A stretch of 64,000 nucleotides of DNA from Candidatus Omnitrophota bacterium (lineage in GTDB: Bacteria; Omnitrophota; Gorgyraeia; Gygaellales; Profunditerraquicolaceae): positions 10,350 through 74,349 of the forward strand of contig DAONDX010000009.1 in the NCBI GenBank assembly GCA_035402765.1, given 5' to 3'. This document shows positions 588 to 26,874 of this stretch, one piece after another. The notes under the pieces were generated by a model. It made no database searches and was not told the DNA's origin. It worked only from the letters and a program-made list of their open reading frames with translations. The translations under genes and the position numbers were made by a program. Every line of letters starts with the position of its first letter. Position 1 is the stretch's first letter.

Positions 588-608
588 TACTTAAAGGAGA
601 TTAAAAAG

Positions 609-2804: not shown

Positions 2805-2808
2805 GCTT

Positions 2809-3669
2809 ATGCAGACCATGGCGGTCATTAAAAAAGATATGGAGTTTAACCAGGGGCTTTCTTCTTTAATTGAGGTGTTGAAGAATATCGCGGTCTCCCA
2901 ATACCGTTCTTTAGAGCATAGATTCGGCGGTTTTGATAAGTTTATGAGCGCTGTGGAAAGTTATTTTGAATTTATTGATTTTAAAGCTGTCCGGCATCCA
3001 TTCCTGGCTCCGACCAATAAAACTCAAGTGGTTGTGGTAGTTACCTCCGACGGCGGTCTTTTGGGCGGTTTAAATATGCAGGTAGTCTCCCGGGCTTTAG
3101 CGGAACTGGCGAGTAATCCCGGCCAATTAGTGGTGATCGGTGAGCGGGGTAAAATGTATGCGCGGGAAAGCGGAGTTCCCTTTGTAGCTTACCCTGGGAT
3201 CAACGACGATGACCGGTTGAACCAGGCTTTTCAGCTAAGGGATTATTTGTTCAGGAACGCCCTGAGGGGAAAGTTCGGATTATTGAAAGTAGTGTACCCT
3301 CACCCGGTATCTTTTACGGTTCAGCGGGTTGAGACAGTAACTTTTTTTCCTTTTTTACCGGAATTTTTAGCCGCTAAACCTCAGGGTCCCGAGAAACTTG
3401 CGATTTTGCAAAATGTGATCTTTGAATCAAAAATCAGCGATATTGTGGAGTATCTGGTTTATTTATGGATGGGCCAGCGGCTTTATGATATTTTTGGCTT
3501 AAGCCGCCTGTCAGAGTTTGCCGCCCGTTACGTCCATCTTGAAGACAGTCTGCGGCGGCTTAAAGAGATGGACGCAAAGCTAAAGCTGCAGTATTTCCGT
3601 GTCCGGCATGAAATTATCGATCAAAGCATGCGGGAATTGTTTAGCGCCAGGCAGTTGTTTAATGCTTAA
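2809..3669 (+). CDS. atpG: F-type ATP synthase gamma subunit
   Basis: At 286 aa it sits between alpha and beta, with the N- and C-terminal helices typical of gamma. Confidence 0.85.
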   Translation: MQTMAVIKKDMEFNQGLSSLIEVLKNIAVSQYRSLEHRFGGFDKFMSAVESYFEFIDFKAVRHPFLAPTNKTQVVVVVTSDGGLLGGLNMQVVSRALAELASNPGQLVVIGERGKMYARESGVPFVAYPGINDDDRLNQAFQLRDYLFRNALRGKFGLLKVVYPHPVSFTVQRVETVTFFPFLPEFLAAKPQGPEKLAILQNVIFESKISDIVEYLVYLWMGQRLYDIFGLSRLSEFAARYVHLEDSLRRLKEMDAKLKLQYFRVRHEIIDQSMRELFSARQLFNA

Positions 3670-3705
3670 TGACCAGATCTGAGATTTTTTATGGGAAGAT
3701 AAACT

Positions 3706-5103
3706 ATGAATAATAAAGCTAAAGGTAAGATTACCGCGGTGCAGGGCCCGGTGGTCGACGTAAAATTTAATTCGGCCGATGATGTGCCGAATGTTTACGC
3801 GATGTTACTTACCCATACTATCGAAGGCAGCGAAGTTTTTTTGGAGGTTGCCGAACATTTACCGGGTAATGTCGCCCGGTGTATTTCGATTAATTCTACG
3901 ACAAATATTCAACGTTATGCCGAAGCTATTTTTTACGGTTCTTCCATTCAAATTCCGGCCGGGGACGGGCTTTACGGTCGCTTGATTAATGTCGTAGGTC
4001 AGCCGATTGACCAGGGAGGGCCGGTTGAACATCAGGAAAAAAGCTCGATCCGTAAAACCGATATGGGCAGCCGGGTCCGGGTCAGTAAAAATAAGGATGA
4101 GCGCCGCAGTTACGAAGTTATGGAAACCGGGATCAAGATTATCGATTTGCTGGCTCCGCTGGTTAAAGGAAGCAAAACCGGTATTTTAGGAGGCGCCGGG
4201 TTAGGCAAAAGCGTGCTGACCCTGGAGATTATCCAGCATATCGTCAAGCGTTATCAGGGGTCTTGCGTTTTTGTCGGTATCGGAGAACGTATCCGCGAAG
4301 GGAACGAATTGTATTATGAATTAAAGAATCATGATGTTCTATCTAAAACAATGATGGTATTCGGCCAGATGAACGAGCCGCCGGGGGCGCGTTTTGCTGT
4401 GGCAATGACCGGGATCACGATGGCTGAAGCGGTGCAGAAAAAGAACCAGGATGTTTTGATGTTTTGTGATAATATTTTTCGTTTTGTCCAGGCCGGTAGC
4501 GAAATCTCAACCCTTCTGGGGCGGGTGCCTTCAGAAACCGGGTATCAGCCTACTTTGCTTTCTGAAGTTAGCGAATTTCATGAACGGATCCGTACGACTA
4601 AGGATGCCGGAGGGTCAATTACTTCTATCGAGGCCGTTTATGTCCCGGCTGATGATTTAACGGACCCTGCAGTTGTGGCGATTTTTAGTTTTTTGGATTC
4701 AGTATTAGTTTTGTCCCGCGAACGGATCCAGCTGGGTTTGTACCCGGCGATTGATCCGCTTTTATCCAGTTCTTCCAATCTGGATATCGATATCGTCGGA
4801 AAACGCCATTTTGAGGTTGCCCAAGGGGTAATCAGGATGTTCCAGCGTTACGAAGAATTGCGGCGCATTGTCCTGGTAGTCGGGATCGACGAACTTTCAT
4901 CCAGCGACCGGATTATCTATGAACGGGCCCGGAAAATGCAAAATTTTCTTACGCAACCGTTTTCCGTTGCGGAAGCTTATACCGGCAAAAAAGGGGTTTA
5001 TGTAACGATTGAACAAACTCTGGAAGGCTGTGAAAAGATTATGTCCGGCAAAATGGATAGCCAGCCGGAGCAGGGATTTTATTTGATCGGGGCTTTACCC
5101 TAA
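3706..5103 (+). CDS. atpD: F-type ATP synthase beta subunit
   Basis: P-loop GGAGLGKSVL, catalytic GIGERIREG and DELSSSD (the DELSEED equivalent) are present. A ~30-aa insertion follows the N-terminal barrel. Confidence 0.95.
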   Translation: MNNKAKGKITAVQGPVVDVKFNSADDVPNVYAMLLTHTIEGSEVFLEVAEHLPGNVARCISINSTTNIQRYAEAIFYGSSIQIPAGDGLYGRLINVVGQPIDQGGPVEHQEKSSIRKTDMGSRVRVSKNKDERRSYEVMETGIKIIDLLAPLVKGSKTGILGGAGLGKSVLTLEIIQHIVKRYQGSCVFVGIGERIREGNELYYELKNHDVLSKTMMVFGQMNEPPGARFAVAMTGITMAEAVQKKNQDVLMFCDNIFRFVQAGSEISTLLGRVPSETGYQPTLLSEVSEFHERIRTTKDAGGSITSIEAVYVPADDLTDPAVVAIFSFLDSVLVLSRERIQLGLYPAIDPLLSSSSNLDIDIVGKRHFEVAQGVIRMFQRYEELRRIVLVVGIDELSSSDRIIYERARKMQNFLTQPFSVAEAYTGKKGVYVTIEQTLEGCEKIMSGKMDSQPEQGFYLIGALP

Positions 5104-5156: not shown

Positions 5157-7316
5157 ATGCCTAAAAAAATTGATTTACAATTAGCGGAAATTTTAGTTGA
5201 AAAAAAACTGATCACCCGTGAAAATGTCGCAGAGCTTCTGCTGGAAGCTGACCGCCTAAAACAGGACCTGCGGCAGGTTTTAGTAAAACATAGTTTGTTC
5301 TCTGAACAAGCCGTCCTGGATTTATTAGCGGAAAAATTAAAACTTACCTGTGTTAATCTTAAGGAGTTATCAATTGACAGATTAATTATTAACAAGGTTC
5401 CTTTAAAAATAGCTTCTTATTATAAATTCATTCCGTTATTCTTAAAAGGCAGGACTTTAACCATCGCTGTAGCTTATCCCCTGGATATTATGACGCTGGA
5501 TGAAATCAGGACTCAGTTAGGTTTAGACATTGAAACGGCTTTGGCTTGTGCCGCCGATGTGGCGGATGATTTAAAAAAATATTATGGTTTAGCCGCTGAT
5601 ACTTTGGAAAAAATAAATTCACAGCAGGTTTCAACTTCGGCTAATGACCAGCAGAGCAGAAACCAGGAGGGGGTAGAGGATATTGAGAAACAGGCTACCG
5701 ATGCCTCGGTAATTAAATTAGTTAATCAAATAATTTTAGAGGCCTGGCGGAAACGGGCCACGGATATTCATATTGAGCCTTACCGGCAAGGCCTGGCGCT
5801 GCGTTATCGGATTGATGGCCTGCTTTATGATGCCAATATTCCCGGTGAAATAAAAAATTTTATGAATGCGATTATTTCCCGGATTAAAATCATGTCTAAC
5901 CTGAACATTGTTGAACGCCGGCTTCCCCAGGATGGCCGGGCAATTGTCAGAGTTCAGGATCAGGTTTTGGATTTGCGGATTTCGACTATTCCCACTCCTT
6001 TCGGCGAAAGTTTGGTTATCAGGATTCTGCCTACCCAGATGCTTTTTAGCTTGGAGAAATTAGGTTTATCCAAGAATGAGCTGCAGATTTTCGAAGGTTT
6101 GGTACAGAAACCGCACGGTATAATTTTTGTTACCGGTCCGACGGGGAGCGGTAAGACCACTACGCTTTACGCCTGTTTGAGCAGGATTAACACTAAGGAC
6201 CGCAAGATCATCACGATCGAGGATCCTATCGAGTATGAGATGAGCGGGATTACTCAGATCCAGGTCCAGCCGGAGATCGGTTTGGATTTTGCCCGCGGGC
6301 TGCGCAGTATCTTAAGGCATGATCCGGACGTGATCATGGTGGGAGAAGTCAGGGATTTTGAAACAGCCGAAACCGCTATCCGGGTGGCTTTGACCGGACA
6401 TTTAGTATTTTCTTCCGTGCACACTAATGATGCGGCTAGCGGCATTGCCCGCTTACAGGATATCGGAGTTGAGCCGTATTTAATTGCTTCCAGTGTTGAG
6501 GCTTTTATTGCGCAACGGTTAATCCGGGTTATCTGTCCGGAATGCCGGTTTGAAGATAAGCAGGCGCCTTTAGAGTTAAGAGAATTAATCGCCCGTGATC
6601 TGGGAATAAAATTAGAAGAAGTTAAAATCTTCCGGGGTAAAGGATGCCCTCATTGTAATTCTACGGGTTATTTTGGCCGCACAGCAATCTATGAAATTTT
6701 AATTGTGGATGAACTGACCAAAGAAATGATTCTCAAGAAAGCTTCTTCCGACCAGATCAAGCGGTTGGCTGTATCTAAAGGGATGCGTACTTTAAGGCAG
6801 GACGGTTGGAGAAAAACCATTGCCGGGGTCACTACTTTTGAGGAGGTGATCCGGGTAACTTCCGCCGAAGAGGAGGTTAGTATTAAAAAAGATACCTCAA
6901 CCGCTGAAAGCAGCTATCCTTATCAAGAGGCCAATCCTGAGCCGGGGACATTAAGCCGGCGGGTTTACCGGCGGCTGGATAAACAGGTGAATGTGAGCTA
7001 TAAGGTCTTTGAAGTAGAGAATGAATTAATTAAACGCAAAGATGCTGTTGAAGAGGCAACGGCCAGTAAAAATATTTCTGCCGGAGGCCTGCTCTTTGTA
7101 GCGAAGGATAAATTAATTATCGGTTCAATACTTGAGCTAAAGATCCAATTACCTAATAGCGATGAGCTGATTGAATGTCTAGCCAGAGTGGTCAGAGTGG
7201 AAGAGCTGATTGAACAAAGAGAATATGATGTTGCCGTCTGTTTCCTGGATTTAACCGGCGCCGAACGGATAAGATTAGATAAGTTTGTAGGGCAGAAACC
7301 GGAGGGCAGGTTATAA
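5157..7316 (+). CDS. pilB: Type II secretion / type IV pilus assembly ATPase (GspE/PilB family) with a C-terminal PilZ domain
   Basis: It has a GspE N-terminal domain, Walker A GPTGSGKTTT, and the tetracysteine CPEC...CPHC motif. The C-terminal ~135 aa carry PilZ motifs RRVYRRLD (RxxxR) and NISAGG (D/NxSxGG). Confidence 0.9.
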   Translation: MPKKIDLQLAEILVEKKLITRENVAELLLEADRLKQDLRQVLVKHSLFSEQAVLDLLAEKLKLTCVNLKELSIDRLIINKVPLKIASYYKFIPLFLKGRTLTIAVAYPLDIMTLDEIRTQLGLDIETALACAADVADDLKKYYGLAADTLEKINSQQVSTSANDQQSRNQEGVEDIEKQATDASVIKLVNQIILEAWRKRATDIHIEPYRQGLALRYRIDGLLYDANIPGEIKNFMNAIISRIKIMSNLNIVERRLPQDGRAIVRVQDQVLDLRISTIPTPFGESLVIRILPTQMLFSLEKLGLSKNELQIFEGLVQKPHGIIFVTGPTGSGKTTTLYACLSRINTKDRKIITIEDPIEYEMSGITQIQVQPEIGLDFARGLRSILRHDPDVIMVGEVRDFETAETAIRVALTGHLVFSSVHTNDAASGIARLQDIGVEPYLIASSVEAFIAQRLIRVICPECRFEDKQAPLELRELIARDLGIKLEEVKIFRGKGCPHCNSTGYFGRTAIYEILIVDELTKEMILKKASSDQIKRLAVSKGMRTLRQDGWRKTIAGVTTFEEVIRVTSAEEEVSIKKDTSTAESSYPYQEANPEPGTLSRRVYRRLDKQVNVSYKVFEVENELIKRKDAVEEATASKNISAGGLLFVAKDKLIIGSILELKIQLPNSDELIECLARVVRVEELIEQREYDVAVCFLDLTGAERIRLDKFVGQKPEGRL

Positions 7317-7318
7317 TC

Positions 7319-8539
7319 ATGGCTAATTATAATTATCGCGCTAAAAAAGGACTGCAAGAGATAATTAACGGTACGATCGAAGCGGTTTCTGAAAAAGAGG
7401 CAATTGAAAAAATCAGTGCGCTGGGTTATCTTCCTATCTCTCTGGAAGAAGCTAAAAATCAGCAGAAATTTTCTCCTGCTCCTGTAGCGTATAAAACGCA
7501 CGGCAGGATCAAGGGCAGGCAAATTACTACTTTTTCCCGGCAGCTTTCCAGCCTTTTAAAATCCGGAGTCCCCATACTGTCGGCGATAAACATTATTAGA
7601 GAACAGTCGGAAAACGTGAATTTAAAAGCCGTCCTTTATGATATTTACAATGTAATTAAGAACGGGGGAACATTTTCTTCGGCTTTGGAGGTTTATCCGA
7701 AATATTTTCCCGTTTTATATATTGCCATGGTGCGTACGGGGGAAAATAGCGGAGCTTTAGCCGCTTCGCTTTTGAGGATCGCCGATTACCGGGCTAAACA
7801 AGAAGAACTGATTTCACGTTTCCGGATGGCGATGGCCTATCCCATATTGATGGCCCTGGTGGGGATAGCTACGGTAGTATTTATGCTTACTTATGTAATG
7901 CCCAGATTAATGGGGATATTCTCTAGTCTAGGGCAGAATTTACCGTTGCCTACCCAAATTCTGTTAGCCCTGAGCAAGGGGTTGCGCCAATGGTGGCCTT
8001 GGATGATTTTAATTATCTTGGCCGCAGTTGTTTTGATCAAGCAGCAGTTAAATACTAAAATGGGCAGGTTAACCTGGAGCGTTTGTAAACTGCGTATTCC
8101 TATATTCGGAAATTTCGCGCTCAAAGCCGATCTGGCTTGTTTTAGCCGGACTTTGGAATTACTGCTTAAAAGCGGCCTGCCGATTTTAAGCGCTTTACAG
8201 ATATCCGTGCAGGTATTGAATAATGAAGTGATCAAAGAAAAATTGATGAAGAGTTACCGGGATCTAGAGCAGGGTGGATCTTTGGGACGGAGTTTGAAAG
8301 ATTCTAAATTGCTTCCCTTGTTTATGGTGAATTTGATCAGCATCGGAGAAGAATCCGGGAATCTGGCTTCTTCTTTGGGGGAAGTCGCCGATTCCTATGA
8401 ACGCGATACCGATGAAATGATCAAGGTGATGAGCAGTTTACTTGAGCCGCTAATGATTTTAGCAATGGGTTTAATCGTCGGTTTTATTGTGATCGCGATG
8501 CTTTTGCCGATCTTCGAAATTAACCTGATGTCTAAATAA
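7319..8539 (+). CDS. pilC: Type II secretion / type IV pilus inner-membrane platform protein (GspF/PilC family)
   Basis: It is 406 aa with duplicated GspF domains and three TM segments. It lies immediately downstream of the ATPase. Confidence 0.9.
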   Translation: MANYNYRAKKGLQEIINGTIEAVSEKEAIEKISALGYLPISLEEAKNQQKFSPAPVAYKTHGRIKGRQITTFSRQLSSLLKSGVPILSAINIIREQSENVNLKAVLYDIYNVIKNGGTFSSALEVYPKYFPVLYIAMVRTGENSGALAASLLRIADYRAKQEELISRFRMAMAYPILMALVGIATVVFMLTYVMPRLMGIFSSLGQNLPLPTQILLALSKGLRQWWPWMILIILAAVVLIKQQLNTKMGRLTWSVCKLRIPIFGNFALKADLACFSRTLELLLKSGLPILSALQISVQVLNNEVIKEKLMKSYRDLEQGGSLGRSLKDSKLLPLFMVNLISIGEESGNLASSLGEVADSYERDTDEMIKVMSSLLEPLMILAMGLIVGFIVIAMLLPIFEINLMSK

Positions 8540-8543
8540 CTTA

Positions 8544-9404
8544 ATGTATAATAGAAAATTAAAATTATTTTTATTTATTTTTTTAGGAATTTTCAGCTTA
8601 ACTGCCGGTTATGCCGATGATTGGAAGGAGAAAAAAAGCGAACATTTTATCGTGTATTTCGAGCAGGATGATGCTTTTGCCCAGTCAGCATTAGACGGCG
8701 CGGAAAAAAATTACCGCAATATCGCTAATGATCTAGGATATGCGCGTTATTCCGAATTTTGGACTTGGGACAAAAGAGTAAAGATCTATATCTATCCGGA
8801 TCATGACGCTTTTTTAAGAGCTACCGGCCAGCCAAGTTGGTCAGAAGGCATGGCGGATTATACCAATAAACAAATAATCAGTTATGTCTGGGGTAAAGGT
8901 TTTATCGAATCTCTCCTTCCGCATGAAATAGCGCATTTGGTTTTCAGGGATTTTGTGGGTTTTAAAGGCGAAATCCCCCTGTGGCTGGATGAAGGGGTGG
9001 CCCAATGGGAGGAGGAAGCTAAAAGAAAAGAAATCAAGAATTTGATCCAGCGTTATTTTCAACAGGATAATTTGTTGTTGGTTAGCGATATCATGAAATT
9101 GAATATTTCGAATTTAAAAGATAAAACCGGGGTGTTGATCAGGGCGACCAAGACCAAAGACGGCAAAGATGGGGTGTTGTTTTTAAGCTCAAACAATCTA
9201 ATCGAAATTTATTATATGGAATCGGTTTCTCTGATCGGCTACTTGATCGAAAAGTTCGGTTCCGCTGCTTTTTCCGGATTTTGCCGTGAATTGCGCGACG
9301 GTAAAAGCGTAGAGGATGCTTTGAAAATATCCTATCCTTTATACATACACAATATTCAGGAATTTGAGGATGGATGGAGAGAATATCTGAAGGCAGGCAA
9401 TTAA
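8544..9404 (+). CDS. Secreted peptidase-MA-like protein (HExxH) of unknown function
   Basis: A signal peptide is present and HEIAHLV is followed by a downstream LDEG, consistent with a gluzincin-like fold. It is embedded between pilC and the pseudopilin genes. Confidence 0.45.
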   Translation: MYNRKLKLFLFIFLGIFSLTAGYADDWKEKKSEHFIVYFEQDDAFAQSALDGAEKNYRNIANDLGYARYSEFWTWDKRVKIYIYPDHDAFLRATGQPSWSEGMADYTNKQIISYVWGKGFIESLLPHEIAHLVFRDFVGFKGEIPLWLDEGVAQWEEEAKRKEIKNLIQRYFQQDNLLLVSDIMKLNISNLKDKTGVLIRATKTKDGKDGVLFLSSNNLIEIYYMESVSLIGYLIEKFGSAAFSGFCRELRDGKSVEDALKISYPLYIHNIQEFEDGWREYLKAGN

Positions 9405-9428
9405 TCAGAGGCTATCAGGAGGAAGACT

Positions 9429-9863
9429 ATGAACAAATTGTATAAGTTTCAAGCGGCAGTGAAAAATCCCGGGGGGTTTACCCTGATCGAATTGATGCTG
9501 GTGGTGGTAATTATCGGAGCGTTAGTGGCGATGGTTACGCCCAGACTTGCCGGTAGAGGGGAACAGGCCAGAGCGGCAGCCGCCAACGCAGATATCAATG
9601 CTAATATTGCTACGGGCCTGAAGCTTTATGAATTGGACAACGGTAATTTCCCGAGTACTTCAGAGGGGTTGAATGCTTTATTGGTTAAACCTGATTCCGC
9701 CCGGAATTGGAACGGCCCATATTTAGAAAAAAAACCCGTTGATCCCTGGGGTAAAGAGTATGAATATAAATCTCCCGGAGAGCATCGTAAAAGCGATTAC
9801 GATCTCTATTCTTTAGGCAAAGACGGAACGGAAAGTGCCGATGATGTCAATAACTGGGAATGA
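9429..9863 (+). CDS. gspG: Major pseudopilin, GspG-like, with a prepilin cleavage/methylation motif
   Basis: GGFTLIELMLVVVIIG is a class III signal peptide. The body matches GspG (NADINANIATGLKLYELDNGNFPS...DPWGKEYEY...DYDLYSLGKDG). Confidence 0.85.
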   Translation: MNKLYKFQAAVKNPGGFTLIELMLVVVIIGALVAMVTPRLAGRGEQARAAAANADINANIATGLKLYELDNGNFPSTSEGLNALLVKPDSARNWNGPYLEKKPVDPWGKEYEYKSPGEHRKSDYDLYSLGKDGTESADDVNNWE

Positions 9864-9882
9864 GGGGTCTTGCAATTTAAAG

Positions 9883-10293
9883 ATGCCGGCCGGTAAAATA
9901 TCCAATCAAAGATCTAAAAAAAAAGGTTTTACTCTTCTGGAAGTAATGATCGCTACTGCCGTTCTGGCGTTGGGGGCGACATTAATTTACCAGTCTTTTT
10001 TTATCGCCGTTAATTCTTTTAATTACTACTCCACGCTTTTGAAAGTATCTCCCTGGATGAATGAAACGATCTGGCAGGCTCAGAATCGCCTCCGACATCT
10101 GGGTTCGGGCGCGACGCTGTCTTCCGGCGGGCTGCTGAATATTAATAATAAAGATCTAAATTGGAGTTTATCCTATAATTCCCTGGATCAAACGGATAGT
10201 TTTTACCGGGTTAATTTAACGGTGGTTTGGCCGCAGGGAACCCGGCAGGTGAAATTATCAAGGTCTGCATATGCGATTTATACGAAAAAATAA
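9883..10293 (+). CDS. Minor pseudopilin (prepilin-type N-terminal domain)
   Basis: KKGFTLLEVMIATAVLALG is a prepilin motif. The start is placed at the ATG at 9883; the ORF-track start at 9835 would overlap gspG. Confidence 0.6.
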   Translation: MPAGKISNQRSKKKGFTLLEVMIATAVLALGATLIYQSFFIAVNSFNYYSTLLKVSPWMNETIWQAQNRLRHLGSGATLSSGGLLNINNKDLNWSLSYNSLDQTDSFYRVNLTVVWPQGTRQVKLSRSAYAIYTKK

Positions 10294-10855
10294 ATTAGGT
10301 TTTAGCCTGGTGGAGTTGTTGGTGGTTACCGGGATGCTCGGGGTAATTTCTTTAGCCATATTTGCGACTTTTAACAATGGGTTTAAGATCTGGAAAAGGA
10401 TCAATCAGCCATTGGCGGATGAGGATTTGGGATTTCTCTTCGATAAACTGGCAGTGGATTTGAACAATTGCCTAAAGTCTAACAGCATTTCTTTTTCCGG
10501 TAGTGAAAATAATTTAAGTGTTCCTACCCTGGTGGATAGCCCGGATCTGGCGGCCAGGACCGTGGGGGCGGTTGTTTATTCCTACGATCAGCCAGCCGGT
10601 TTATTGATCCGGCAGCCTAATGATTTCAGCCAGCTTTATCGCCACCATGAGGATAGCGGAGTTGTCCTGCTTAAAAATATCAGGTCCTTAAAATTCGAGT
10701 ATTATTATTATGATAAACTAAAGTCAGAGTATATTTGGAAAGAAGAATGGTCACAGGCGGGCTTGCCGCTAGCGGTAAGGGTGAGTTTAAATTTAAGGGA
10801 TGCATCTGAAAATGATAAAATTATCCGGACGTTTAATATTCCTATCGGAGGCTAA
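10271..10855 (+). CDS. Minor pseudopilin (prepilin-type N-terminal domain)
   Basis: The prepilin motif KLGFSLVELLVVTGMLGVISLAIFA is present. Confidence 0.6.
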   Translation: MRFIRKNKLGFSLVELLVVTGMLGVISLAIFATFNNGFKIWKRINQPLADEDLGFLFDKLAVDLNNCLKSNSISFSGSENNLSVPTLVDSPDLAARTVGAVVYSYDQPAGLLIRQPNDFSQLYRHHEDSGVVLLKNIRSLKFEYYYYDKLKSEYIWKEEWSQAGLPLAVRVSLNLRDASENDKIIRTFNIPIGG

Positions 10856-11849
10856 AAGCCGAGGCAGCATCCTGATCGTTGCTTTGTGGTCGCTTTGTCT
10901 ACTGTCGGCATTTGCGGTTATTTTGAATTATCAGGTGCGGCAGGAGCTGGCTTTAGCCATTCGCCTTGATCAGCGGGACCGGCTGCGCCTGATTGCCGAA
11001 GCCGGAGTCGATCAGGCAATTATGGAATTAAAAAGCAACCCGGAAAAAATGTATTATTGCTTAGCCGATAGCTGGAGCAATAATCCGGCCGCTTTTAAAA
11101 ATATTCAAGTGGGCAGCGGAGAGTTTAGCCTGACCCATAGCTATCCGGAAAAAAAATCCGGTCTGATGCAGACCGGTTACGGCTGTGTCGATGAAGAAAG
11201 TAAAATTAATATTAATAAGGCTGAGTCCGGAGTATTGGAACGCCTTTTTAGAATTGTTTTAGCTTGTGATGAAATCCAGGCCCAGGAGTTGGCAGCTAGT
11301 ATACTGGATTGGAGAGATGAGGACAGCGCGCTCTCTATTCCGACGGGCAGCGCGGAAGATGATTATTATACTAACCTGCCTTTTCCTTATGCCGCGAAAA
11401 ATTCAGCATTTGAGGTATTGGAAGAATTACTTTTAGTTAAAGGATTTAGTGATAATGTTTTTGAAAAAATAAAAGACTATGTTACTATCTATGGAGAAGG
11501 CAGAGTCAATATTAACACCGCAAATGAAGTTGTGCTTTTTGCTTTAGGGCTGGATGAGAAGATCGTGGATAGGATCGCAGCTTATCGCGCCGGAGAAGAT
11601 GAATTGATCGGCACGCTGGATGATAATGTTTTCGCAGCCGCTTCGGACATTGTGCCGACCTTGAGTCAAATTTATCAGTTCAGTCCTTCCGAGCTGGAGC
11701 GGTTTAATCTGGTGGCTAATTTGTTTTTAGGAGTTAGCTCCAGCAATTTTTTAATTAAGGCTACGGCTAGTTTGACGGAAAAGAATTCACAAACCGTCTT
11801 TTGTGTAGTCAAGCGTGACGGTAAGATTCTTTACTGGCGGGAAGATTAA
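10800..11849 (+). CDS. gspK: GspK-like minor pseudopilin
   Basis: An N-terminal RGSILIVALWSL matches the GspK signature (GxALLxVLW). The C-terminal ININTANEVVLFALGLDEKIVDRIAAYR is the helix-hairpin-helix region typical of GspK. The true start is probably an internal Met near 10812. Confidence 0.65.
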   Translation: MHLKMIKLSGRLIFLSEAKSRGSILIVALWSLCLLSAFAVILNYQVRQELALAIRLDQRDRLRLIAEAGVDQAIMELKSNPEKMYYCLADSWSNNPAAFKNIQVGSGEFSLTHSYPEKKSGLMQTGYGCVDEESKININKAESGVLERLFRIVLACDEIQAQELAASILDWRDEDSALSIPTGSAEDDYYTNLPFPYAAKNSAFEVLEELLLVKGFSDNVFEKIKDYVTIYGEGRVNINTANEVVLFALGLDEKIVDRIAAYRAGEDELIGTLDDNVFAAASDIVPTLSQIYQFSPSELERFNLVANLFLGVSSSNFLIKATASLTEKNSQTVFCVVKRDGKILYWRED

Positions 11850-11853
11850 ATAA

Positions 11854-13332
11854 ATGTTTAAATTTAATATGGATAATTTAAAACTTTTGTCCGGATTAAC
11901 TAACCAGGAATTGGTGGGGGTTAATTTTAACGGGAACAGCTTAAAAATCTCCCATATTAAAATTTCGCCCAATCGTAAAGAAGTAGTTAATCTGCTGAAT
12001 TTAGACATTACCGCTCTTAACGATATAGATATCGCTAAGGCGATCCAGGTTGCCATCGGCGCACTCCGGGGCAGAAAAGTTGAGATCGTGGATGTGGTTC
12101 CGACACAGCTGGTGATCACGAAAAATATCGAAATTCCCTCCATTGACAAGAAAGAGATTAAGGAAATTCTTAATCTGCAGGCCGGCCGGCATACCCCCTA
12201 TTCAAGAGAGGAAATCATTGTTGATTATGTCGAGATCGGCACCTATAAACATAGCTATACTAAGGTGCTGTTGGTGATTGTTGCCCGCTCCGTGGTCAAA
12301 CGGCATTATGAAATATTGGACCGGGCGGGTTTTAAGTTAAAAAAGGCTCTTTTGGCTTCTGAAGGGATGGCACTGGCAATTTCTAAAACCTTAAGGCTAG
12401 AGACAGATAATGCGCCGGTTAATATACTGCACGTTGATGAAAATTTTACGGATTTTAGTATTGTCCTTAAGAATAAGGTTATATTTATTCGTTCTATTCC
12501 TATCGGGACTTCTCAATTAAAGAATGAAAAAGAAGTTTATCAGATTAAATTTGTAGATGAACTGAAAAGGTCTCTGGAGGCTTATTTAGGCGGAGACATT
12601 GAAATAAGTCCGCATATGTTAATTCTAACCGGCGCGGAAGAAGAACTCAAAGAGATTGAAAGCCTGCTGAATAACACGCTGCATTTACCGGTAAAAACTA
12701 TGCCGTATGCTAATATCTTTGGTATTTCAGAATTGGCCCGCGGAGCAATGGCTAAATTCCGGCAGCTGTCTTTTTTTGATGTGATCGCGCCGATTTTAAA
12801 TTGCGGAGAGATGAAAATTGACCTTATCCCGGAAGAAGCCAGGGTGCGCCGGTCCATTGAAGAGAGAGGCAAGGATTTGATTAAAACCGGGATTTTTATT
12901 TTATCCATTTTGATTGTCACTTTTTTTATTCTGACCAGCAAAATTTATTTTAAGGGCGCGCAACTGAATAAATTGGAAAGCAGGTATGCGACAATTAATC
13001 AGGAAGCGAAGAAATTAGAAAAAGATCTTTTAAAGGTCGGTTTGGTAAAAAATTACCTGACCAACCGCGGGTATTCTTTAGAGATACTTACGGAATTGCA
13101 TTCTTTGGTTTCTGAAGATATAGAGTTAAGCGAAATCCGCTATGATGGGGATAAATTTTCGGTAAAAGGCACGGCCAATGCCATGTCTTCAGTTTTTTCT
13201 TTTGTTGATCTTATGGAAAAATCAAAATATTTCAAAGAAGTTAAAACCCGCTATACTACTAAGCGCAAAGATGGTTTAAGAGACTTGACGGATTTTGAAA
13301 TTGTGGCGCAGACCGAAAGGCCGCAAGAATGA
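11854..13332 (+). CDS. PilM-like actin-fold assembly protein fused to a PilN-like TM and periplasmic segment (GspL-equivalent)
   Basis: A ~340-aa cytoplasmic PilM-like domain is followed by a single TM (IFILSILIVTFFIL) and a ~130-aa periplasmic coiled-coil tail. Confidence 0.65.
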   Translation: MFKFNMDNLKLLSGLTNQELVGVNFNGNSLKISHIKISPNRKEVVNLLNLDITALNDIDIAKAIQVAIGALRGRKVEIVDVVPTQLVITKNIEIPSIDKKEIKEILNLQAGRHTPYSREEIIVDYVEIGTYKHSYTKVLLVIVARSVVKRHYEILDRAGFKLKKALLASEGMALAISKTLRLETDNAPVNILHVDENFTDFSIVLKNKVIFIRSIPIGTSQLKNEKEVYQIKFVDELKRSLEAYLGGDIEISPHMLILTGAEEELKEIESLLNNTLHLPVKTMPYANIFGISELARGAMAKFRQLSFFDVIAPILNCGEMKIDLIPEEARVRRSIEERGKDLIKTGIFILSILIVTFFILTSKIYFKGAQLNKLESRYATINQEAKKLEKDLLKVGLVKNYLTNRGYSLEILTELHSLVSEDIELSEIRYDGDKFSVKGTANAMSSVFSFVDLMEKSKYFKEVKTRYTTKRKDGLRDLTDFEIVAQTERPQE

Positions 13333-13898
13333 TAAAACTGCCGAATCTTAAGGCGCTCCAGGTGTTCCTGGGGCGTTTATCAAAAAAAGATAAAATAATT
13401 TTTTATATTGCCGTTTTTGTTGTTTCTTTGATGGTCTTGGACCGGGCGATCATCTCGCCGGTATTTAATAAGATCAGGTCCTTGAATAAAGAAGTTAAAG
13501 ATGAGCAGGCGACGATTAAGAAAAATTTACGTATCCTGGCCCAGAAGGACAGGATATTATCGGAAGGTGCCAAATACAGTTCTTTTCTGGGCGATGCCCA
13601 ACTTAGCGATGATGAACAGATAACTTTGGTTTTAAAGGAAATTGAAAGTTTAGCCAGCAAGAGTTCGGTATATCTGGTGGATATGAAACCTTCCGGGACA
13701 AAAGAATCAGGTTCTTCAAAAAGGATCATGATCAACTTGAATTGTGAAGCCCAGATGGAGCAGCTGGTTGATTTTATGTATAATTTAGAAAATTCGAATA
13801 TTTTGCTTTCTATCGAGAAATATCAACTGACTCCTAAAACTAAAGAATCCAGTGTAGCAAAATGCAGTATTTCGGTTTACAAGGTAGTTGCGTTATAA
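13329..13898 (+). CDS. GspM/PilO-like bitopic assembly protein
   Basis: It has an N-terminal TM, a coiled coil and a C-terminal alpha/beta domain. It lies directly after the GspL-like gene in a translationally coupled operon. Confidence 0.5.
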   Translation: MIKLPNLKALQVFLGRLSKKDKIIFYIAVFVVSLMVLDRAIISPVFNKIRSLNKEVKDEQATIKKNLRILAQKDRILSEGAKYSSFLGDAQLSDDEQITLVLKEIESLASKSSVYLVDMKPSGTKESGSSKRIMINLNCEAQMEQLVDFMYNLENSNILLSIEKYQLTPKTKESSVAKCSISVYKVVAL

Positions 13899-14067
13899 TG
13901 TTTAAGTAAATAAAAAATTAATTTTTAACCGCGGTTTTGGATGATGAGCCGGTTTGGCAGAACGGCCGGGGCGAAGCGCGTAGATTCATATCGCGCGATC
14001 CGCTGGATAGTTATCTCCGGCGCTGTTAAGTACTGCGCCGGTATCCGCTAGGTAGCGGAGAAAGGGG

Positions 14068-14544
14068 ATGGAAATGAAAAAAACATTTTTTTTAGTTTTA
14101 GCTTTAGTGTTGGCCTGGAATTTTTCCGCGCAGGCTTTGGAGACCACCTTGATTGATACCCGCAATGAGATTCTAAAAACATCGGAGGAGCTAAAAACAT
14201 ATTTTACTACCACCCGGGATCCGGTTTTATTGAACAGCCTGTGGGATTCTTCAATTATGGCGGTTTCGCAGCTGGATGCCTATTTTTCTATGTTGGGGAT
14301 ATTTAATACGATAAAAAAAGAAAATTTAGACCAAGCTGCGTTTACTTACCTGATTAAATGGTTGAACCAATTAAAAGACTCCACTGCCTCAAATATAAAA
14401 AGCTTGAGTTCCATCAAGAAGACTACTGATGCCCGCAGTAAAGCTTACGTATTAAAATTAAAGGATATATTTAGTAACCTGGAATCGCGTATTGATAAAG
14501 AACTCCAAAGCGTTACGAAGTATTCGGAATCAATTAAGCAATAA
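14068..14544 (+). CDS. Small secreted hypothetical protein
   Basis: A signal peptide MEMKKTFFLVLALVLAWNFSAQA is followed by a helical, low-complexity body. An RBS GGAGAAAGGGG lies upstream. Confidence 0.4.
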   Translation: MEMKKTFFLVLALVLAWNFSAQALETTLIDTRNEILKTSEELKTYFTTTRDPVLLNSLWDSSIMAVSQLDAYFSMLGIFNTIKKENLDQAAFTYLIKWLNQLKDSTASNIKSLSSIKKTTDARSKAYVLKLKDIFSNLESRIDKELQSVTKYSESIKQ

Positions 14545-14698
14545 TCGGCTGCAGGTTTTAATGTTTTAGCTTGGTAAATGGCTCCAGACAGCTTAAGCTG
14601 ACAGAGCGCCATCGATCAAGTGGCCGGCTTTTTTAGTTATAGCTATCGAAGATTTACCGGGCTTAAAGGGTAGAAGGCCTTAATTAAGGAGAGAAACG

Positions 14699-15541
14699 AT
14701 GCGTAAATTCATCTTGCTATTTCAATGTCAAGACCGCAAAGGGATTGTGGCCAAAATTTCTGATTTTATTCTCAAGGTAGGCGGTAATATTATTACCGCT
14801 GATCAATACAGTACAGACCCGGAAGGCGGGTATTTTTTTATACGGATAGAGTTTGTTTTGGACAGCCAACAGGCTAACTTGCAAAGCCTGGCTTCAGCTT
14901 TTAGCCCGCTAGCCGATGAGTTCGGTGCTAGTTGGAATATCTATGACCGTTCTGAAGTCCTGCGTATGGGTATTTTTGTGTCTGAACCGGATCATTGTTT
15001 AGCGGATGTTTTATATTTATGGAACGCGGGTGAATTAAATGTAAAAATCCCGTTTGTTTTAAGTAATTGCGAAAAACACCGCAAGTTAGTAACTGGATAC
15101 AACCTGCCTTTTTATTATGTGCCGGCCAATAAAGACAATCGCCGCGAGGAAGAGCTATTGGCTTATGCTTCTGATGCGACAGATTTTTTAGTGCTGGCCC
15201 GTTATATGCTGGTGCTTTCGCCGGATTTCCTGCGCAAATATAATAAAGATATAATTAATATTCACCATGGGTTTCTGCCTTCTTTTAAAGGAGTGGATCC
15301 TTACGCCCAGGCACTTAAAAAAGGAGTTAAGGTGATCGGTTCTACCGTCCATTTTGTGAATAATCAACTTGATGAAGGTCCGATCATTGCCCAAGAAGTT
15401 GAGTATATATCACACAAGGATAATCTTGTTGATCTGGTCCGTAAAGGAAAGCAGACGGAAAGAAAGGCCTTGGTGCATGCTTTATCCAGCTACATCGATT
15501 ACCGGATAATTAAACACGAAAATAAAACTATAGTTTTTTAG
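14699..15541 (+). CDS. purU: Formyltetrahydrofolate deformylase
   Basis: An N-terminal ACT domain is followed by a formyltransferase domain. Confidence 0.85.
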   Translation: MRKFILLFQCQDRKGIVAKISDFILKVGGNIITADQYSTDPEGGYFFIRIEFVLDSQQANLQSLASAFSPLADEFGASWNIYDRSEVLRMGIFVSEPDHCLADVLYLWNAGELNVKIPFVLSNCEKHRKLVTGYNLPFYYVPANKDNRREEELLAYASDATDFLVLARYMLVLSPDFLRKYNKDIINIHHGFLPSFKGVDPYAQALKKGVKVIGSTVHFVNNQLDEGPIIAQEVEYISHKDNLVDLVRKGKQTERKALVHALSSYIDYRIIKHENKTIVF

Positions 15542-15569
15542 GCGTTTACAAATATAATCAGGCTGGGAT

Positions 15570-16406
15570 TCAGATGTTTTTTAATTTTTGAATGACCTCT
15601 TGGATGCTGGATTCCGGAGTAGAGGCCCCCGCAGTAATCCCCACGTTTTTGGCATTTTTTAGCCAGGTCTTCTTAATTTCTTGCGCGGAGTTTACCCAAT
15701 AACTATTTTTGTTCAGAGATTTTGAGATTTCGTAAATTCTTTTGGTATTGGCGCTGGTTTTTGAGCCGATGATAATCATCACAGAGTTTTTTTTCGGCAT
15801 AATTTTGACTTCATTCTGCTTGATTCTGGTAGGATTACAGATGGTGTTATGGAAGTCGATTTTGGGAATATATTTACGCAAGATTTCCAGGATCGCCAGG
15901 GCATTATCCAGGTTTTGAGTGGACTGAATAATTATTCCGGCTTTTTTAATCTTTTTGATTTTAGCTAAGGGAATGCTTTGCAGCTTATCGATTACCAGGG
16001 CTTTAGTTTTAAGCTGCCCGATGATCCCCCGGACTTCATCATGCTGTTTGTCCCCGATTATAATTATTTGATCGCCATTATTTTCTAAACTGCGGGCGAT
16101 TCCGTGGATTTCTTTTACCATCGGGCAGGTTGCATCAATAACCTGCCAGCCCAGGTTTTTAGCTTGCTGTAAAGTATGCTTTGATGAGCCGTGCGCGCGG
16201 ATGAGCAATGTCTTGCCTGCTCCCGAAGTAAGACGGCGGATTTTTTTAATTCCGGCATTGCGGATTGATTCTACCACCTTTTCATTGTGCACAATATCTC
16301 CGAGCATGAATACTAATTTCCTGGTTTTAGCGGTTTCTAAAGCTTTAGTGATCGCTTTTCTTACTCCAAAACAGAAACCCGCGGATTTAGCTAAGTTAAT
16401 TTTCAT
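15570..16406 (-). CDS. ispH: 4-hydroxy-3-methylbut-2-enyl diphosphate reductase
   Basis: FCFGVRKAI, DATCPMV and CNPT motifs mark the three Cys ligands of LytB. Confidence 0.9.
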   Translation of the reverse strand: MKINLAKSAGFCFGVRKAITKALETAKTRKLVFMLGDIVHNEKVVESIRNAGIKKIRRLTSGAGKTLLIRAHGSSKHTLQQAKNLGWQVIDATCPMVKEIHGIARSLENNGDQIIIIGDKQHDEVRGIIGQLKTKALVIDKLQSIPLAKIKKIKKAGIIIQSTQNLDNALAILEILRKYIPKIDFHNTICNPTRIKQNEVKIMPKKNSVMIIIGSKTSANTKRIYEISKSLNKNSYWVNSAQEIKKTWLKNAKNVGITAGASTPESSIQEVIQKLKNI

Positions 16407-17555: not shown

Positions 17556-18686
17556 ATGAAAAAAATCGTAATTATCGGCGCTGGTTTTGCCGGTTTAAGC
17601 GCTGCCCGAAGATTATCCCGTTGCGGTTTACCCGTAGAAATTACTCTCTTTGACAAAAAGGGCGAGTTTAATTTTTTGCCGCTTTTGCCGAACTGCCTGG
17701 GATGTTTGATTAATCCGGATTTTTTGGTTAATCAGGTTGCCGGTTTCTGCCGTAAACTTAAGATCAAATTTAATCAAGAGGAGATTGTTTCAGTTGATTT
17801 AGCAGCCAGGGAAGTTAAAAGTGGCAAGGCTTCTTATGATTATGATTATTTAGTTATTGCCAGCGGCAGCCAAACGAACTTTTTTGCCAATTCCGCTGCC
17901 CAGGCTTACGGATATTCATTAAATAGCGTGGCGGATATCCAGAGTATTCTTGCGCGCTTGAGGGAAAACAATTTTGAAAATTTGGTTATTTGCGGTGCCG
18001 GGTTCACCGGGATTGAAGCAGCGGCTAATTTGTGGCTATACCTAAAAAAGAAAAGATTATCTAAAAAGATCATTATTGTTGAACGTGCCCCGGATATTTT
18101 ATCAGCTTTGCCCGGCTGGATAAGGGAGTATGTTTCGGAAAATTTAAAGGATTTGGGTATCGAGGTGTTGACCAATTCCATGATCGAAAATATCCAGGCG
18201 GATAAGCTGGAGATTTCCGGAGGAAAAATATTCCAACAGGCAATGTTGATCTGGGTGCCCGGAGTAAGAACCGCAGATTTTATTCAAAAACTAAAGATTG
18301 CCAAGAATCCTCAGGGCAGAATTATAGTAGATGAATATTTAGGCGCCGGAAGTAATTGTTTTTGCGCCGGTGACGCTGCGGCTTTTGGCAAAAACAGCAT
18401 TTTTTTAAGAATGGCTGTTCAGTTTGCGATTACCCAGGGCCATCAGGCGGCCGGGAATATAATTCGGAGCCTAAAGAATCTTCCGCTTAAAAAATACTGT
18501 CCCCAAGATCTAGGCTATATTATTCCGATGGTTAATAATCGATCCTGCGGCCAGGTTTTAGGTTGGAATGTTTCAGGGTTCCTGGCGACATTTTTGCATT
18601 TTACCATGTGTATTTTTCGTTCGCTGGGCTGGAAGAATCGTCGAGGGTTAATGAGCGATCTTTTGAAAGGAGGCGGAAAATGTTAG
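17556..18686 (+). CDS. FAD/NAD(P)-binding oxidoreductase, type II NADH:quinone oxidoreductase (NDH-2)-like
   Basis: An N-terminal Rossmann motif IVIIGAGFAGLSAA is followed by a second GAGFTGIE motif. Confidence 0.7.
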   Translation: MKKIVIIGAGFAGLSAARRLSRCGLPVEITLFDKKGEFNFLPLLPNCLGCLINPDFLVNQVAGFCRKLKIKFNQEEIVSVDLAAREVKSGKASYDYDYLVIASGSQTNFFANSAAQAYGYSLNSVADIQSILARLRENNFENLVICGAGFTGIEAAANLWLYLKKKRLSKKIIIVERAPDILSALPGWIREYVSENLKDLGIEVLTNSMIENIQADKLEISGGKIFQQAMLIWVPGVRTADFIQKLKIAKNPQGRIIVDEYLGAGSNCFCAGDAAAFGKNSIFLRMAVQFAITQGHQAAGNIIRSLKNLPLKKYCPQDLGYIIPMVNNRSCGQVLGWNVSGFLATFLHFTMCIFRSLGWKNRRGLMSDLLKGGGKC

Positions 18687-26870: not shown

Positions 26871-26874
26871 TCAG

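Follow-up and report, generated by a model that had tools for sequence, protein, structure and literature searches.

Omnitrophota are a candidate phylum of tiny, possibly predatory bacteria. In every class of this phylum, pilus-type genes are found no more than 10 kb from the alpha and beta genes of an atypical F-type ATPase, and the locus has been catalogued as "T4aP" beside a "symbiotic" F-type ATPase, the T4aP label deriving from TXSScan (Seymour et al. 2023, Nat Microbiol, PMC10066038). The same study recorded the locus in V. archaeovorus, where its expression was reported, and inferred that Omnitrophota are predators or parasites; the terms PilQ, PilD, PilB, peptidase, c subunit, subunit a and proton are absent from its main text. 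The cluster described here, in a window of 64 kb (the whole stretch of DNA that was analysed), has the same arrangement of pilus genes and ATPase and is the same locus, known since 2023 and not new. In contrast to the earlier description, T2SS families are found to fit its parts best, and an embedded gluzincin peptidase and a glutamine in the ATPase c subunit are described. The best fit to T2SS families and the standing of GspG as the most conserved gene appear to be a new point, as do the fixed membership of the peptidase in the cluster and the dcw-cluster location of its sister subfamily.

The canonical T2SS (Gsp/Pul/Eps, with E. coli K-12 gspC-O as reference) has the order E-F-G-(H)-I-J-K-L-M, which the cluster follows with GspE, GspF, GspG, I/J/K-like and M-like proteins. 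It differs from this system in having no GspC, GspD, GspH or GspO, in carrying a PilM-PilN fusion in the place of GspL, in the additional PilZ domain of its ATPase, in a peptidase gene between F and G, and in joining an F-type ATPase operon. With the PilM-N-O-P-Q series of type IVa pili it shares PilM- and PilN-type domains followed by a PilO/GspM-like protein in the same order, but PilM and PilN form a single fused protein, the pilP position is taken by a secreted helical protein, and no PilQ, PilT, PilA-type pilin or PilY1 was found for the cluster. With about even confidence, it is read here as an Omnitrophota-wide type IV filament operon for a T2SS-type pseudopilus (endopilus) machine with an accessory periplasmic peptidase.

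Table 1. Coordinates of the cluster and of neighbouring features in the window, with strand and basis of assignment.
Feature	Position	Strand	Basis
F-type ATPase genes, block	139-5103	+	Pfam, ORFs
ATPase epsilon	139-372	+	Pfam/ORF
ATPase c	369-587	+	Pfam/ORF
ATPase b-delta fusion	609-1319	+	Pfam/ORF
ATPase alpha	1320-2804	+	Pfam/ORF
ATPase gamma	2809-3669	+	Pfam/ORF
ATPase beta	3706-5103	+	Pfam/ORF
Assembly ATPase	5157-7316	+	T2SSE 3.4e-130, MshEN 8e-14, PilZ 4.6e-10 (Pfam)
Platform protein, GspF/PilC type, inner membrane	7319-8539	+	T2SSF ~2.1e-58
Sec-exported gluzincin peptidase, 286 aa	8544-9404	+	Peptidase_MA_2 (PF13485) 4.7e-15
Major pseudopilin, GspG type	9429-9863	+	T2SSG 1.2e-31
Minor pseudopilin, faintly GspI-like	9835-10293	+	N_methyl 9.8e-09
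Minor pseudopilin, GspJ-like	10271-10855	+	T2SSJ 2.1e-06, N_methyl
Minor pseudopilin, GspK-like	10800-11849	+	T2SSK_1st 1.5e-16, HHH_3 1e-09
PilM-PilN fusion	11854-13332	+	PilM_2 1.1e-14 (residues 27-225), PilN 1.6e-09 (residues 411-486)
GspM/PilO-type bitopic platform protein	13329-13898	+	T2SSM_b 2e-06
Small secreted protein, conserved, last operon gene	14068-14544	+	ORF; no known family
Terminator-like hairpin then T-run, 3' of last gene	14608-14640	+	Consensus scan
lolC/E plus lolD-like genes	23514-25398		Pfam
mlaE/F/D	30492-32668		Pfam
lptF/G	48777-50998		Pfam

Families were assigned by Pfam and NCBIfam profile searches of the window ORFs, and these matches bear out the gene content and the T2SS-like character that the sequence-only reading had proposed. 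Ten closely spaced genes, all on the + strand, occupy 5157-14544 with their ORFs where that reading had placed them; intergenic gaps range from -56 to +24 nt, except for 169 nt ahead of the last gene. The major pseudopilin reaches 138.7 bits on the GspG equivalog TIGR01710, exceeding its cut-off of 88.85, and shares 44% identity with E. coli GspG (1e-26), against only 25.6 bits on a PilA model; its leader is cleaved at ...NPG↓GFTLIE. The faintly GspI-like protein, whose gene probably starts at the ATG at 9883, has the leader KKKG↓FTLLEV and a GspI score under threshold, while its position is conserved at a median identity of 42%. The GspJ-like protein scores 28.5 bits on T2SSJ against a cut-off of 28 (leader NKLG↓FSLVEL). 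The GspK-like protein, the putative tip cap, has the leader SRG↓SILIVAL without Glu at +5 and 95.8 bits on the GspK model, under the cut-off of 130.

The assembly ATPase comprises an MshEN N-domain, a GspE/PilB core with CxxC...CxxC, and a C-terminal PilZ domain in which RxxxR (RRVYRR) and NxSxxG (NISAGG) are read from the translation. The presence of MshEN and PilZ domains on a GspE-type ATPase suggests that it is probably gated by c-di-GMP. It scores 594.8 bits on the NCBIfam GspE model and 563.7 on that of PilB, both under the equivalog cut-offs, and the platform protein scores 369.6 bits on GspF compared with 271-289 on PilC models. The PilM-PilN fusion consists of an actin-like cytoplasmic domain, a single TM segment read from the translation, and a periplasmic PilN domain, a predicted topology that matches GspL. 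Its proposed mimicry of GspL holds for architecture only, as BLASTP found no similarity to E. coli GspL. The GspM/PilO-type protein exceeds the T2SSM_b cut-off (28.1 bits against 21.7), with GspM_XpsM at 5.6e-11, under cut-off. Since PilM and PilN are of T4P type and the GspE and PilB scores are close, the distinction between T2SS and T4P is a matter of degree.

The gene order atp-E-F-peptidase-G-I-J-K-MN-M-(small protein) is maintained phylum-wide and is identical, as far as contigs extend, in essentially all loci of 80 other species, a recurrence that places the arrangement far beyond chance. The cluster is a phylum-wide locus and no single-genome oddity. Two of its exported products are lineage-specific: the gluzincin, a zinc protease, and the small helical protein. 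The same order including the HExxH gene, sought in related genomes, recurs: in 71 of 73 loci the peptidase gene immediately precedes gspG, in 47 of 49 it is followed by K, MN and M, and in 30 of 34 it has E and F no more than 10 kb upstream. Insertions of histidine kinases or response regulators fall between F and the peptidase, and none parts the peptidase from G. With the window proteins as reference, median identity is highest for GspG (78% overall, 77% in the globular domain), followed by E (63%), F (59%), the peptidase (57%), MN and M (51% each) and K (48%). Greater variability is to be expected of an exposed major pilin, so the conservation of GspG suggests a hidden pseudopilus, although strong pilin conservation could stem from other causes.

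The gluzincin motif noticed in the product encoded between F and G is confirmed by HExxH-x18-E and by 56.4 bits on Peptidase_MA_2, where the cut-off is 32.4. After removal of a signal peptide (...TAGYA↓DD), the mature protein has ~260 aa, and the active-site residues H127-E128-x-x-H131 and E150 are invariant across 86 sequences, which share 45 invariant residues in all. These begin directly past the cleavage site, indicating that there is no pro-peptide, and Pfam detected no substrate-binding accessory domain. A beta-hairpin insert of 24 residues (about 191-214) is restricted to the pseudopilus-linked clade. The structure model is confident, and its nearest folds are the catalytic domains of M9, M30 and M1. 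Sequence identity to the M9 collagenase peptidase domain and the M1 aminopeptidase catalytic domain, both clan MA gluzincins, is only 11-19%; activator, PKD and CBD domains and the GxMEN exopeptidase motif are missing, with Peptidase_M1 under threshold. The protein is 100% identical to one from a Candidatus Omnitrophota MAG and has 1187 homologues, with relatives in 268 species genomes. The nearest cluster representatives with examined context (P0121, P0126, P0127) lie in the same operon. A sister subfamily at 34-36% identity lies in the dcw cluster, flanked by murG and murC, in three of four cases (the fourth, on a short contig, has murG directly upstream), two of the four being named Omnitrophota, and this location points to the cell wall. 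Remoter homologues adjoin FtsH, rhomboid protease or MacAB, and the context of the family is non-uniform.

The reported lack of a secretin, GspC and prepilin peptidase stands, both in the window (Pfam scan of every ORF of at least 300 aa) and up to about 10 kb from the cluster in the 80 other Omnitrophota species, where PilP was likewise not found; a flanking secretin, which would speak against the first interpretation, was looked for there and none turned up. E. coli GspD, GspC, GspO and GspL queries (phmmer and tblastn) had no match when all ORFs of at least 80 aa from the window and from 82 related loci (1.17 Mb) were searched. Calling the cluster self-contained is nevertheless doubtful, because its pseudopilin leaders, of the canonical form G↓F(T/S)L(I/L)E, call for a prepilin peptidase from another locus. 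For genomes of the phylum, gspD (K02453), rcpA (K02280) and pilD (K02654) appear in published KO tables as genes outside the cluster, and a gspD/rcpC locus of its own is described by West-Roberts et al.

In the favoured model, the pseudopilin leaders would be cut by a PilD-type peptidase from another locus, after which ATPase and platform would assemble GspG into a short fibre that stays unexposed and bears I/J/K as its cap. A secretin from elsewhere would serve for any crossing of the outer membrane; GspD and RcpA genes are reported in the phylum. The gluzincin is predicted to be a catalytically competent periplasmic enzyme and a fixed accessory of the pseudopilin module, most likely cleaving a conserved envelope substrate, either a cell-wall peptide or a machine component, which would permit assembly or extension of the apparatus. 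Envelope-spanning machines with a dedicated cell-wall enzyme or wall-binding factor include the T6SS (TagX), flagella (FlgJ), the T4SS (VirB1) and the T2SS (GspAB), where the enzymes are lytic transglycosylases, M23 or L,D-endopeptidases. The same logic would apply here with a different family, a gluzincin; we know of no cell-wall (peptidoglycan) hydrolases among gluzincins of this fold.

The peptidase may instead be a diffusible product of the machine. Cargo genes within T2SS loci are known, such as pulA and the zinc metalloprotease gene sslE (yghJ) of the E. coli T2SS-beta operon, which sets a precedent. SslE is a large M60-like lipoprotein encoded at the operon edge and not generally conserved with T2SS, whereas the cluster peptidase is a small protein whose gene has a fixed place between gspF and gspG throughout the phylum. 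A T2SS with a secretin elsewhere would then export a collagenase-like protease, perhaps with the small helical protein, against host or prey surface proteins, in keeping with the signal peptide, the intact active site, a fold nearest to secreted M9 collagenases and the M30 protease, and the predatory or parasitic habit inferred for Omnitrophota (PMC10066038). Such a dedicated effector is possible but rather unlikely: effectors against varied hosts usually evolve faster than their export machine, and this enzyme is as conserved as the platform protein. Its lack of a pro-peptide and of accessory domains, its attachment to gspG even in split operons and the dcw-cluster location of its sister subfamily likewise favour a periplasmic accessory factor over cargo.

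A true type IVa pilus on the cell surface, serving attachment and motility on host cells, powered with the adjacent F-type ATPase, its secretin and PilT encoded elsewhere and the peptidase pilus-associated or an unrelated passenger, would agree with the TXSScan calls, co-location statistics and V. archaeovorus expression of Seymour et al. (PMC10066038), with the PilM and PilN domains and with the near-equal PilB score. This appears unlikely given a major subunit of GspG type whose globular domain is conserved phylum-wide, a GspK-type cap, a GspM-type protein, and a window without PilT, PilP, PilQ or PilY1. Less probable still is a secretin-independent machine whose pseudopilus never passes through the outer membrane and which acts on the envelope of its own cell together with the peptidase and possibly an ion-uncoupled F-type ATPase. 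The loss of the c-subunit carboxylate in 19 of 28 loci without an adjacent subunit a gene, the secretin-free surroundings of the cluster in 80 species and the dcw-linked sister subfamily would suit it, as would retention of the cluster in MAG 4484_171 (L081), namesake of a family reported without Tad (Seymour et al. 2023, PMC10066038). Against it, at least one genome carries gspD and rcpA annotations alongside gspE/G/K and only alpha and beta ATPase KOs. Beyond this, we know of no secretin-independent pseudopilus machine confined to the periplasm. Split loci, moreover, are common among type IV filament systems.

The F-type ATPase genes end 53 nt upstream of the cluster, a proximity with which the sequence-only reading had made no connection. 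No terminator-like site was found between atpD and gspE by consensus scan, and the two gene sets probably share a transcript; of the 34 loci whose flank is long enough, 27 have atpD no more than 10 kb upstream of the peptidase. No subunit a gene adjoins these ATPase genes. In the c subunit, Gln takes the place of the ion-binding carboxylate; of 28 loci, 19 have Q and 9 have E at this site.

The outer-membrane markers lptFG, mlaDEF and lolCDE, cited as lying near the cluster, are present in the window. The last operon gene encodes a signal peptide (...SAQA↓LE) followed by ~135 residues predicted to be all-helical, with no match in Pfam, NCBIfam, PADLOC or PDB. Of the 42 loci whose flank is long enough, 31 contain a homologue by tblastn, in most cases immediately 3' of gspM, and ORFs of comparable size occupy this position in some other loci.

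The pseudopilus-type cluster is part of a locus already known throughout the Omnitrophota. Seymour et al. 2023 described "type-4a pilus" gene clusters adjoining a non-respiratory F-type ATPase in every class of the phylum, with the gene sets no more than 10 kb apart in 57 of 66 contigs, and the locus is present in V. archaeovorus and, according to the authors, expressed (PMC10066038). In the window, which derives from an Omnitrophota MAG, pilus-type genes likewise lie less than 10 kb from F-type alpha and beta genes, with an adjacency that is conserved. A T2SS-type pseudopilus operon reliant on genes encoded elsewhere is a more fitting description of the cluster. Omnitrophota are widespread, uncultured, ultra-small bacteria, presumed to be predators or parasites, and this operon is one of a small number of traits that the phylum has retained throughout; it has been presented as a hallmark of such a lifestyle. 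Were the machine a T2SS-type piston and not an adhesive pilus, the published view of how the cells attach and glide would have to be revised. Two features of the locus look new, namely an embedded gluzincin peptidase with a sister subfamily in the dcw cluster of cell-wall synthesis genes, and a degenerate c ring encoded beside the cluster.

The cluster (window 5157-14544) consists of ten ORFs, all on the + strand, with spacings of -56 to +24 nt, except for 169 nt preceding the last one. The gene content proposed by the sequence-only reading was confirmed ORF by ORF with Pfam and NCBIfam, and the outer-membrane markers it placed near the cluster (lptFG, mlaEFD and lolCDE-like genes) were seen in the window. 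The best NCBIfam model for the ATPase is GspE (594.8 bits, PilB 563.7), which does not reach the GspE equivalog cut-off of 630, and both PilZ motifs, RRVYRR and NISAGG, are present. GspF is also the best model for the platform, but below its equivalog cut-off of 424. The major pseudopilin shares 44% identity with E. coli GspG, and the three prepilin-type proteins that follow have canonical G↓F(T/S)L(I/L)E leaders; a fourth minor pseudopilin of the GspH type was found in the cluster by neither Pfam nor NCBIfam. The PilM-PilN fusion matches no GspL model and has no sequence similarity to E. coli GspL, while its downstream neighbor scores 42.4 bits against GspM_XpsM (below 60) and 19.2 bits against PilO (below 22). 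The small secreted protein occupies the slot of pilP in the pilMNOPQ order and gave no match in Pfam, NCBIfam, PADLOC or a PDB sequence search. The gap before its gene (13899-14067, 169 nt) is the sole sizeable intergenic space of the operon; its G+C content is above that of the surroundings, and Rfam gave no match there.

Table. Genes of the cluster and the adjoining ATPase set (window coordinates), and peptidase genes of the dcw-type sister subfamily (coordinates of the respective loci)
Feature	Location	Strand	Remarks
c subunit	369-587		reads ...GLVFAQSLAIV...
b-delta fusion	609-1319
ATPase, 719 aa	5157-7316	+	MshEN N-domain, GspE/PilB core, C-terminal PilZ; T2SSE 3.4e-130
GspF platform	7319-8539	+	T2SSF 2.1e-58; GspF model 369.6 bits, PilC models 271-289
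Peptidase_MA_2 protein, 286 aa	8544-9404	+	Pfam PF13485, 56.4 bits vs cut-off 32.4
GspG major pseudopilin	9429-9863	+	TIGR01710 138.7 bits, above equivalog cut-off 88.85
Prepilin-type protein 1	9835-10293	+	N_methyl motif only; GspI match sub-threshold
Prepilin-type protein 2, GspJ-like	10271-10855	+	T2SSJ 28.5 bits, barely above cut-off 28
Prepilin-type protein 3, GspK-like	10800-11849	+	T2SSK_1st 61.5 bits vs 26.2; without Glu+5
PilM_2 + TM + PilN fusion	11854-13332	+	topology as GspL
GspM/PilO-type protein	13329-13898	+	T2SSM_b 28.1 bits vs cut-off 21.7
Small secreted all-helical protein, 158 aa	14068-14544	+	matches no known family
Sister-subfamily gene, locus L085	10001-10807
Sister-subfamily gene, locus L094	6001-6810
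Sister-subfamily gene, locus L095	1037-1822
Sister-subfamily gene, locus L096	6001-6885

The T2SS-like character claimed for the cluster agrees with both family models and gene order. T2SS models are the top NCBIfam matches for the ATPase, platform, major subunit, cap protein and M protein, and the order corresponds to the canonical gspE-F-G-(H)-I-J-K-L-M, except that the place of GspL is taken by the PilM-PilN fusion. The PilM and PilN domains are the T4P-type parts of the cluster, but fused. A PilA-type major pilin is not encoded there, since the best PilA model reaches 25.6 bits against a cut-off of 400 and the major subunit is of the GspG type. GspG is also the top of the operon in conservation, with a median identity to the window protein of 78% (77% for the globular domain alone), compared with 63% (ATPase) and 59% (platform). 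In type IVa systems the exposed pilin is usually the component that varies most, and we therefore infer from conservation that GspG may form a short hidden pseudopilus rather than a surface pilus.

The same reading had noted the lack of a secretin, GspC and prepilin peptidase at the cluster, and Pfam, phmmer and tblastn were all negative for them. Pfam was run on all window ORFs of at least 300 aa, while E. coli GspD, GspC, GspO and GspL were used as phmmer and tblastn queries on ORFs of at least 80 aa, with the window and 82 loci (1.17 Mb) as targets. No secretin or GspC gene was found in the window by Pfam, and no flanking secretin/GspC locus by phmmer or tblastn within about 10 kb of the cluster in 80 species, with the caveat that a single-sequence query might overlook a very divergent secretin. 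Prepilin peptidase (GspO) gave no phmmer or tblastn match in the window and related loci. As the 1.17 Mb yielded no match to GspD, GspC or GspO, the absence of a secretin beside the cluster is phylum-wide and does not stem from where the window ends. The searches gave no PilQ-type secretin either, and no PilP family turned up in the general Pfam scans. Besides the cluster ATPase, no T2SSE-domain ORF of at least 300 aa occurs in the window, which therefore contains no PilT. Two candidate sites were rejected: inserts of 2-8 kb found between the platform and peptidase genes contain histidine kinases and response regulators but no secretin, and the product of ORF 19174-20346, considered as a novel outer-membrane conduit, passes the inner membrane several times and carries a thioredoxin-like CxxC head.

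The main text of Seymour et al. does not contain the terms PilQ, PilD, PilB or peptidase, and its supplements lack the words pilQ and secretin (PMC10066038). Among the first three genomes of the supplementary KO table, one has gspD (K02453) and rcpA (K02280), together with gspE, gspG, gspK and, from the ATPase KOs, alpha and beta only; pilD (K02654) is given for the other two, and pilT (K02669) for two of the three (PMC10066038). In addition, West-Roberts et al. 2023 reported a separate T2SS/Tad-like locus beside giant genes, including gspD and rcpC. Secretins and a prepilin peptidase therefore exist in the phylum away from the cluster operon. The initial observation stands and its interpretation stands in part; the label "self-contained" is doubtful for this known phylum-wide locus.

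The operon architecture is conserved. The peptidase is 100% identical to a Candidatus Omnitrophota MAG protein and has 1187 homologues at E <= 1e-3, the best 120 of which are all at least 57% identical. Relatives occur in 268 genomes in a scan with one genome per species; the best 80 of these loci, nearly all labelled Omnitrophota, formed the synteny sample, and each count includes only loci with enough flank. When the window proteins were mapped onto them, the common order was atpA-atpG-atpD-E-F-peptidase-G-I-J-K-MN-M-(small protein), where the single letters denote gsp-type genes and MN the PilM-PilN fusion. The order including the HExxH protein thus recurs in related genomes: gspG follows the peptidase in 71 of 73 loci, and K, MN and M follow it in 47 of 49. 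Within 10 kb upstream of the peptidase lie E and F (30/34 loci) and atpD (27/34), and the small protein was detected in 31 of 42 loci, with similar-sized ORFs at its position in some others. In about ten species an insert of 2-8 kb separates the platform gene from the peptidase, which keeps its place beside gspG in all of them. The inserts carry PAS/GAF histidine kinases, response regulators and a hemerythrin (L041 2110-9908, L053 7751-9952, L056 6872-9958), suggesting lineage-specific two-component control of the pseudopilin module; that of L054 (219-9932) includes a second MshEN-type ATPase.

In the window, 53 nt separate the end of atpD from the gspE-type ATPase gene, a scan revealed no terminator-like site between them, and such a site (14608-14640) lies directly past the last gene. 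Together, these features make the cluster look like one long operon with the ATPase genes. The region 3' of the cluster differs between species. A second T2SSF gene and another prepilin-type gene lie beyond the small protein in L089 (14999-17695), and additional prepilin-like ORFs are found about 4 kb 3' of it in L042 (about 14976-15834). L086 has an IS transposase within the cluster and a 689-aa beta-helix (NosD-like) protein (17700-19769) right behind gspM, at the usual place of the small protein. In L077, a pseudopilus-type peptidase gene (9974-10846) stands alone, flanked by serS and dnaX, and no pilus gene occurs up to 10 kb away.

The gluzincin motif pointed out in the embedded protein proved to be genuine by family score and by conservation, as the PF13485 match is above threshold and all 86 homologues share the zinc ligands H127, E128, H131 and E150 (HExxH-x18-E) and 41 other residues without variation. 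The protein is a compact single-module gluzincin and putative enzyme, with a cleavable signal peptide. Conservation starts directly past the signal-peptide cleavage site, and the peptidase therefore has no pro-peptide. A PDB profile search aligned its zinc site with the M1 motif HExxH...WLNEG, and weak M1 zinc-site matches of this kind were all that the PDB sequences yielded. An AlphaFold2 model built from 17 sequences had a pLDDT of 65 in the catalytic half and was replaced by one from an 86-sequence alignment (pLDDT 89.7, pTM 0.83), in which a thermolysin-like catalytic fold is predicted. Several identities were rejected. An M1-type aminopeptidase would carry GxMEN; the matching strand reads EGMAD, with no Glu at that position, and the Peptidase_M1 score is 17.7 bits, below 27.7. 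The protein is not the missing prepilin peptidase, since its Sec signal peptide makes it periplasmic and prepilin cleavage takes place at the cytoplasmic face of the membrane. The idea of a defence system was dropped, as PADLOC matched neither the peptidase nor the small protein.

A profile search among 1.84 billion cluster representatives retrieved 219 peptidase relatives at E <= 1e-30, and 4550 when the limit was E <= 1e-3. Of those whose genomic context was examined, the closest (P0121, P0126, P0127) are encoded in the same atp-E-F-peptidase-G operon. A sister subfamily of 260-270 aa, 34-36% identical, is without the 24-residue beta-hairpin that the main pseudopilus-linked clade has. In three of the four cases with genomic context, its gene sits between murG and murC in the dcw cluster, and the fourth, which comes from a short contig, has murG immediately upstream. 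Two of these cases bear an Omnitrophota name. This dcw-type subfamily is itself widespread, with 297 clusters at E <= 1e-10, and the organism names among the matches listed are nearly all Omnitrophota. In a search for both paralogues in one genome, the locus-tag prefix of the window MAG, PL125_, did not appear among the 120 dcw-type paralogues listed. No description of the murG-murC location was found in the searched literature. Remoter homologues adjoin FtsH, a rhomboid protease or a MacAB-TolC set. The peptidase points to an uncharacterised cell-envelope peptidase family in Omnitrophota, a phylum reported to be without several usual septal hydrolase factors.

The favoured role of the peptidase is that of a periplasmic accessory enzyme, because its position is fixed, its conservation is at the level of the machine, pro-peptide and substrate-binding domains are absent, and its sister is encoded in a cell-wall cluster. 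Its substrate would then be a conserved self component, either a cell-wall peptide or a piece of the machine. The peptidase could instead be cargo of the machine, as its predicted fold resembles that of secreted proteases and T2SS loci do contain cargo genes; the accessory role is judged about twice as likely. With a murG-murC sister, a fixed metalloprotease provides a concrete, testable handle on how the machine crosses the cell wall. A more far-reaching proposal, which we consider improbable, is that the operon and the ATPase genes together specify a type IV filament machine of a new class. Its GspG endopilus would need no secretin, stay within the periplasm and have an envelope-cutting gluzincin of its own, and it would be co-expressed with an F-type rotary ATPase whose genes adjoin none for subunit a and which has lost the c-ring carboxylate in most lineages. 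Such a machine would work on the envelope of the cell itself, or at a host contact site, and not in secretion or as a surface pilus.

The ATPase set beside the cluster encodes epsilon (only 77 aa), c, a b-delta fusion, alpha, gamma and beta, and no subunit a gene adjoins it (window 139-5103). The Gln of the c subunit presumably stands at the position of the ion-binding Glu, by alignment to the I. tartaricus c subunit; of 28 loci, 19 have Q there and 9 have E. Should this alignment hold, a ring with Gln in the lineage of the window probably cannot carry H+ or Na+. Such a change fits the published "non-respiratory" label, is not mentioned in the main text of Seymour et al. (PMC10066038), and is a second testable oddity of the locus. 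The conserved neighbor upstream of epsilon encodes a large protein (at least 797 aa) that has a TM anchor at its C-terminus and matches no Pfam family (L001 3-1580, which corresponds to sequence 5' of window position 1; also L005, L009, L012, L025, L059 and L066).

Some other features of the window lie outside the operon. Rfam detected only a tmRNA and one tRNA, and no c-di-GMP riboswitch; the tag peptide encoded by the tmRNA (58123-58520) is unusually long, at 26 residues (ANTTVFNRLAPMATLMPAGVPALAFN). One ORF (53749-55164) joins a Maf-like nucleotide pyrophosphatase domain to a Peptidase_M48 domain, and a separate second M48 peptidase is encoded at 20865-21827. At 26803-30492, an McsB-type ATP:guanido phosphotransferase (protein arginine kinase) adjoins a ClpC-type AAA+ chaperone, a pair best known from Firmicutes.
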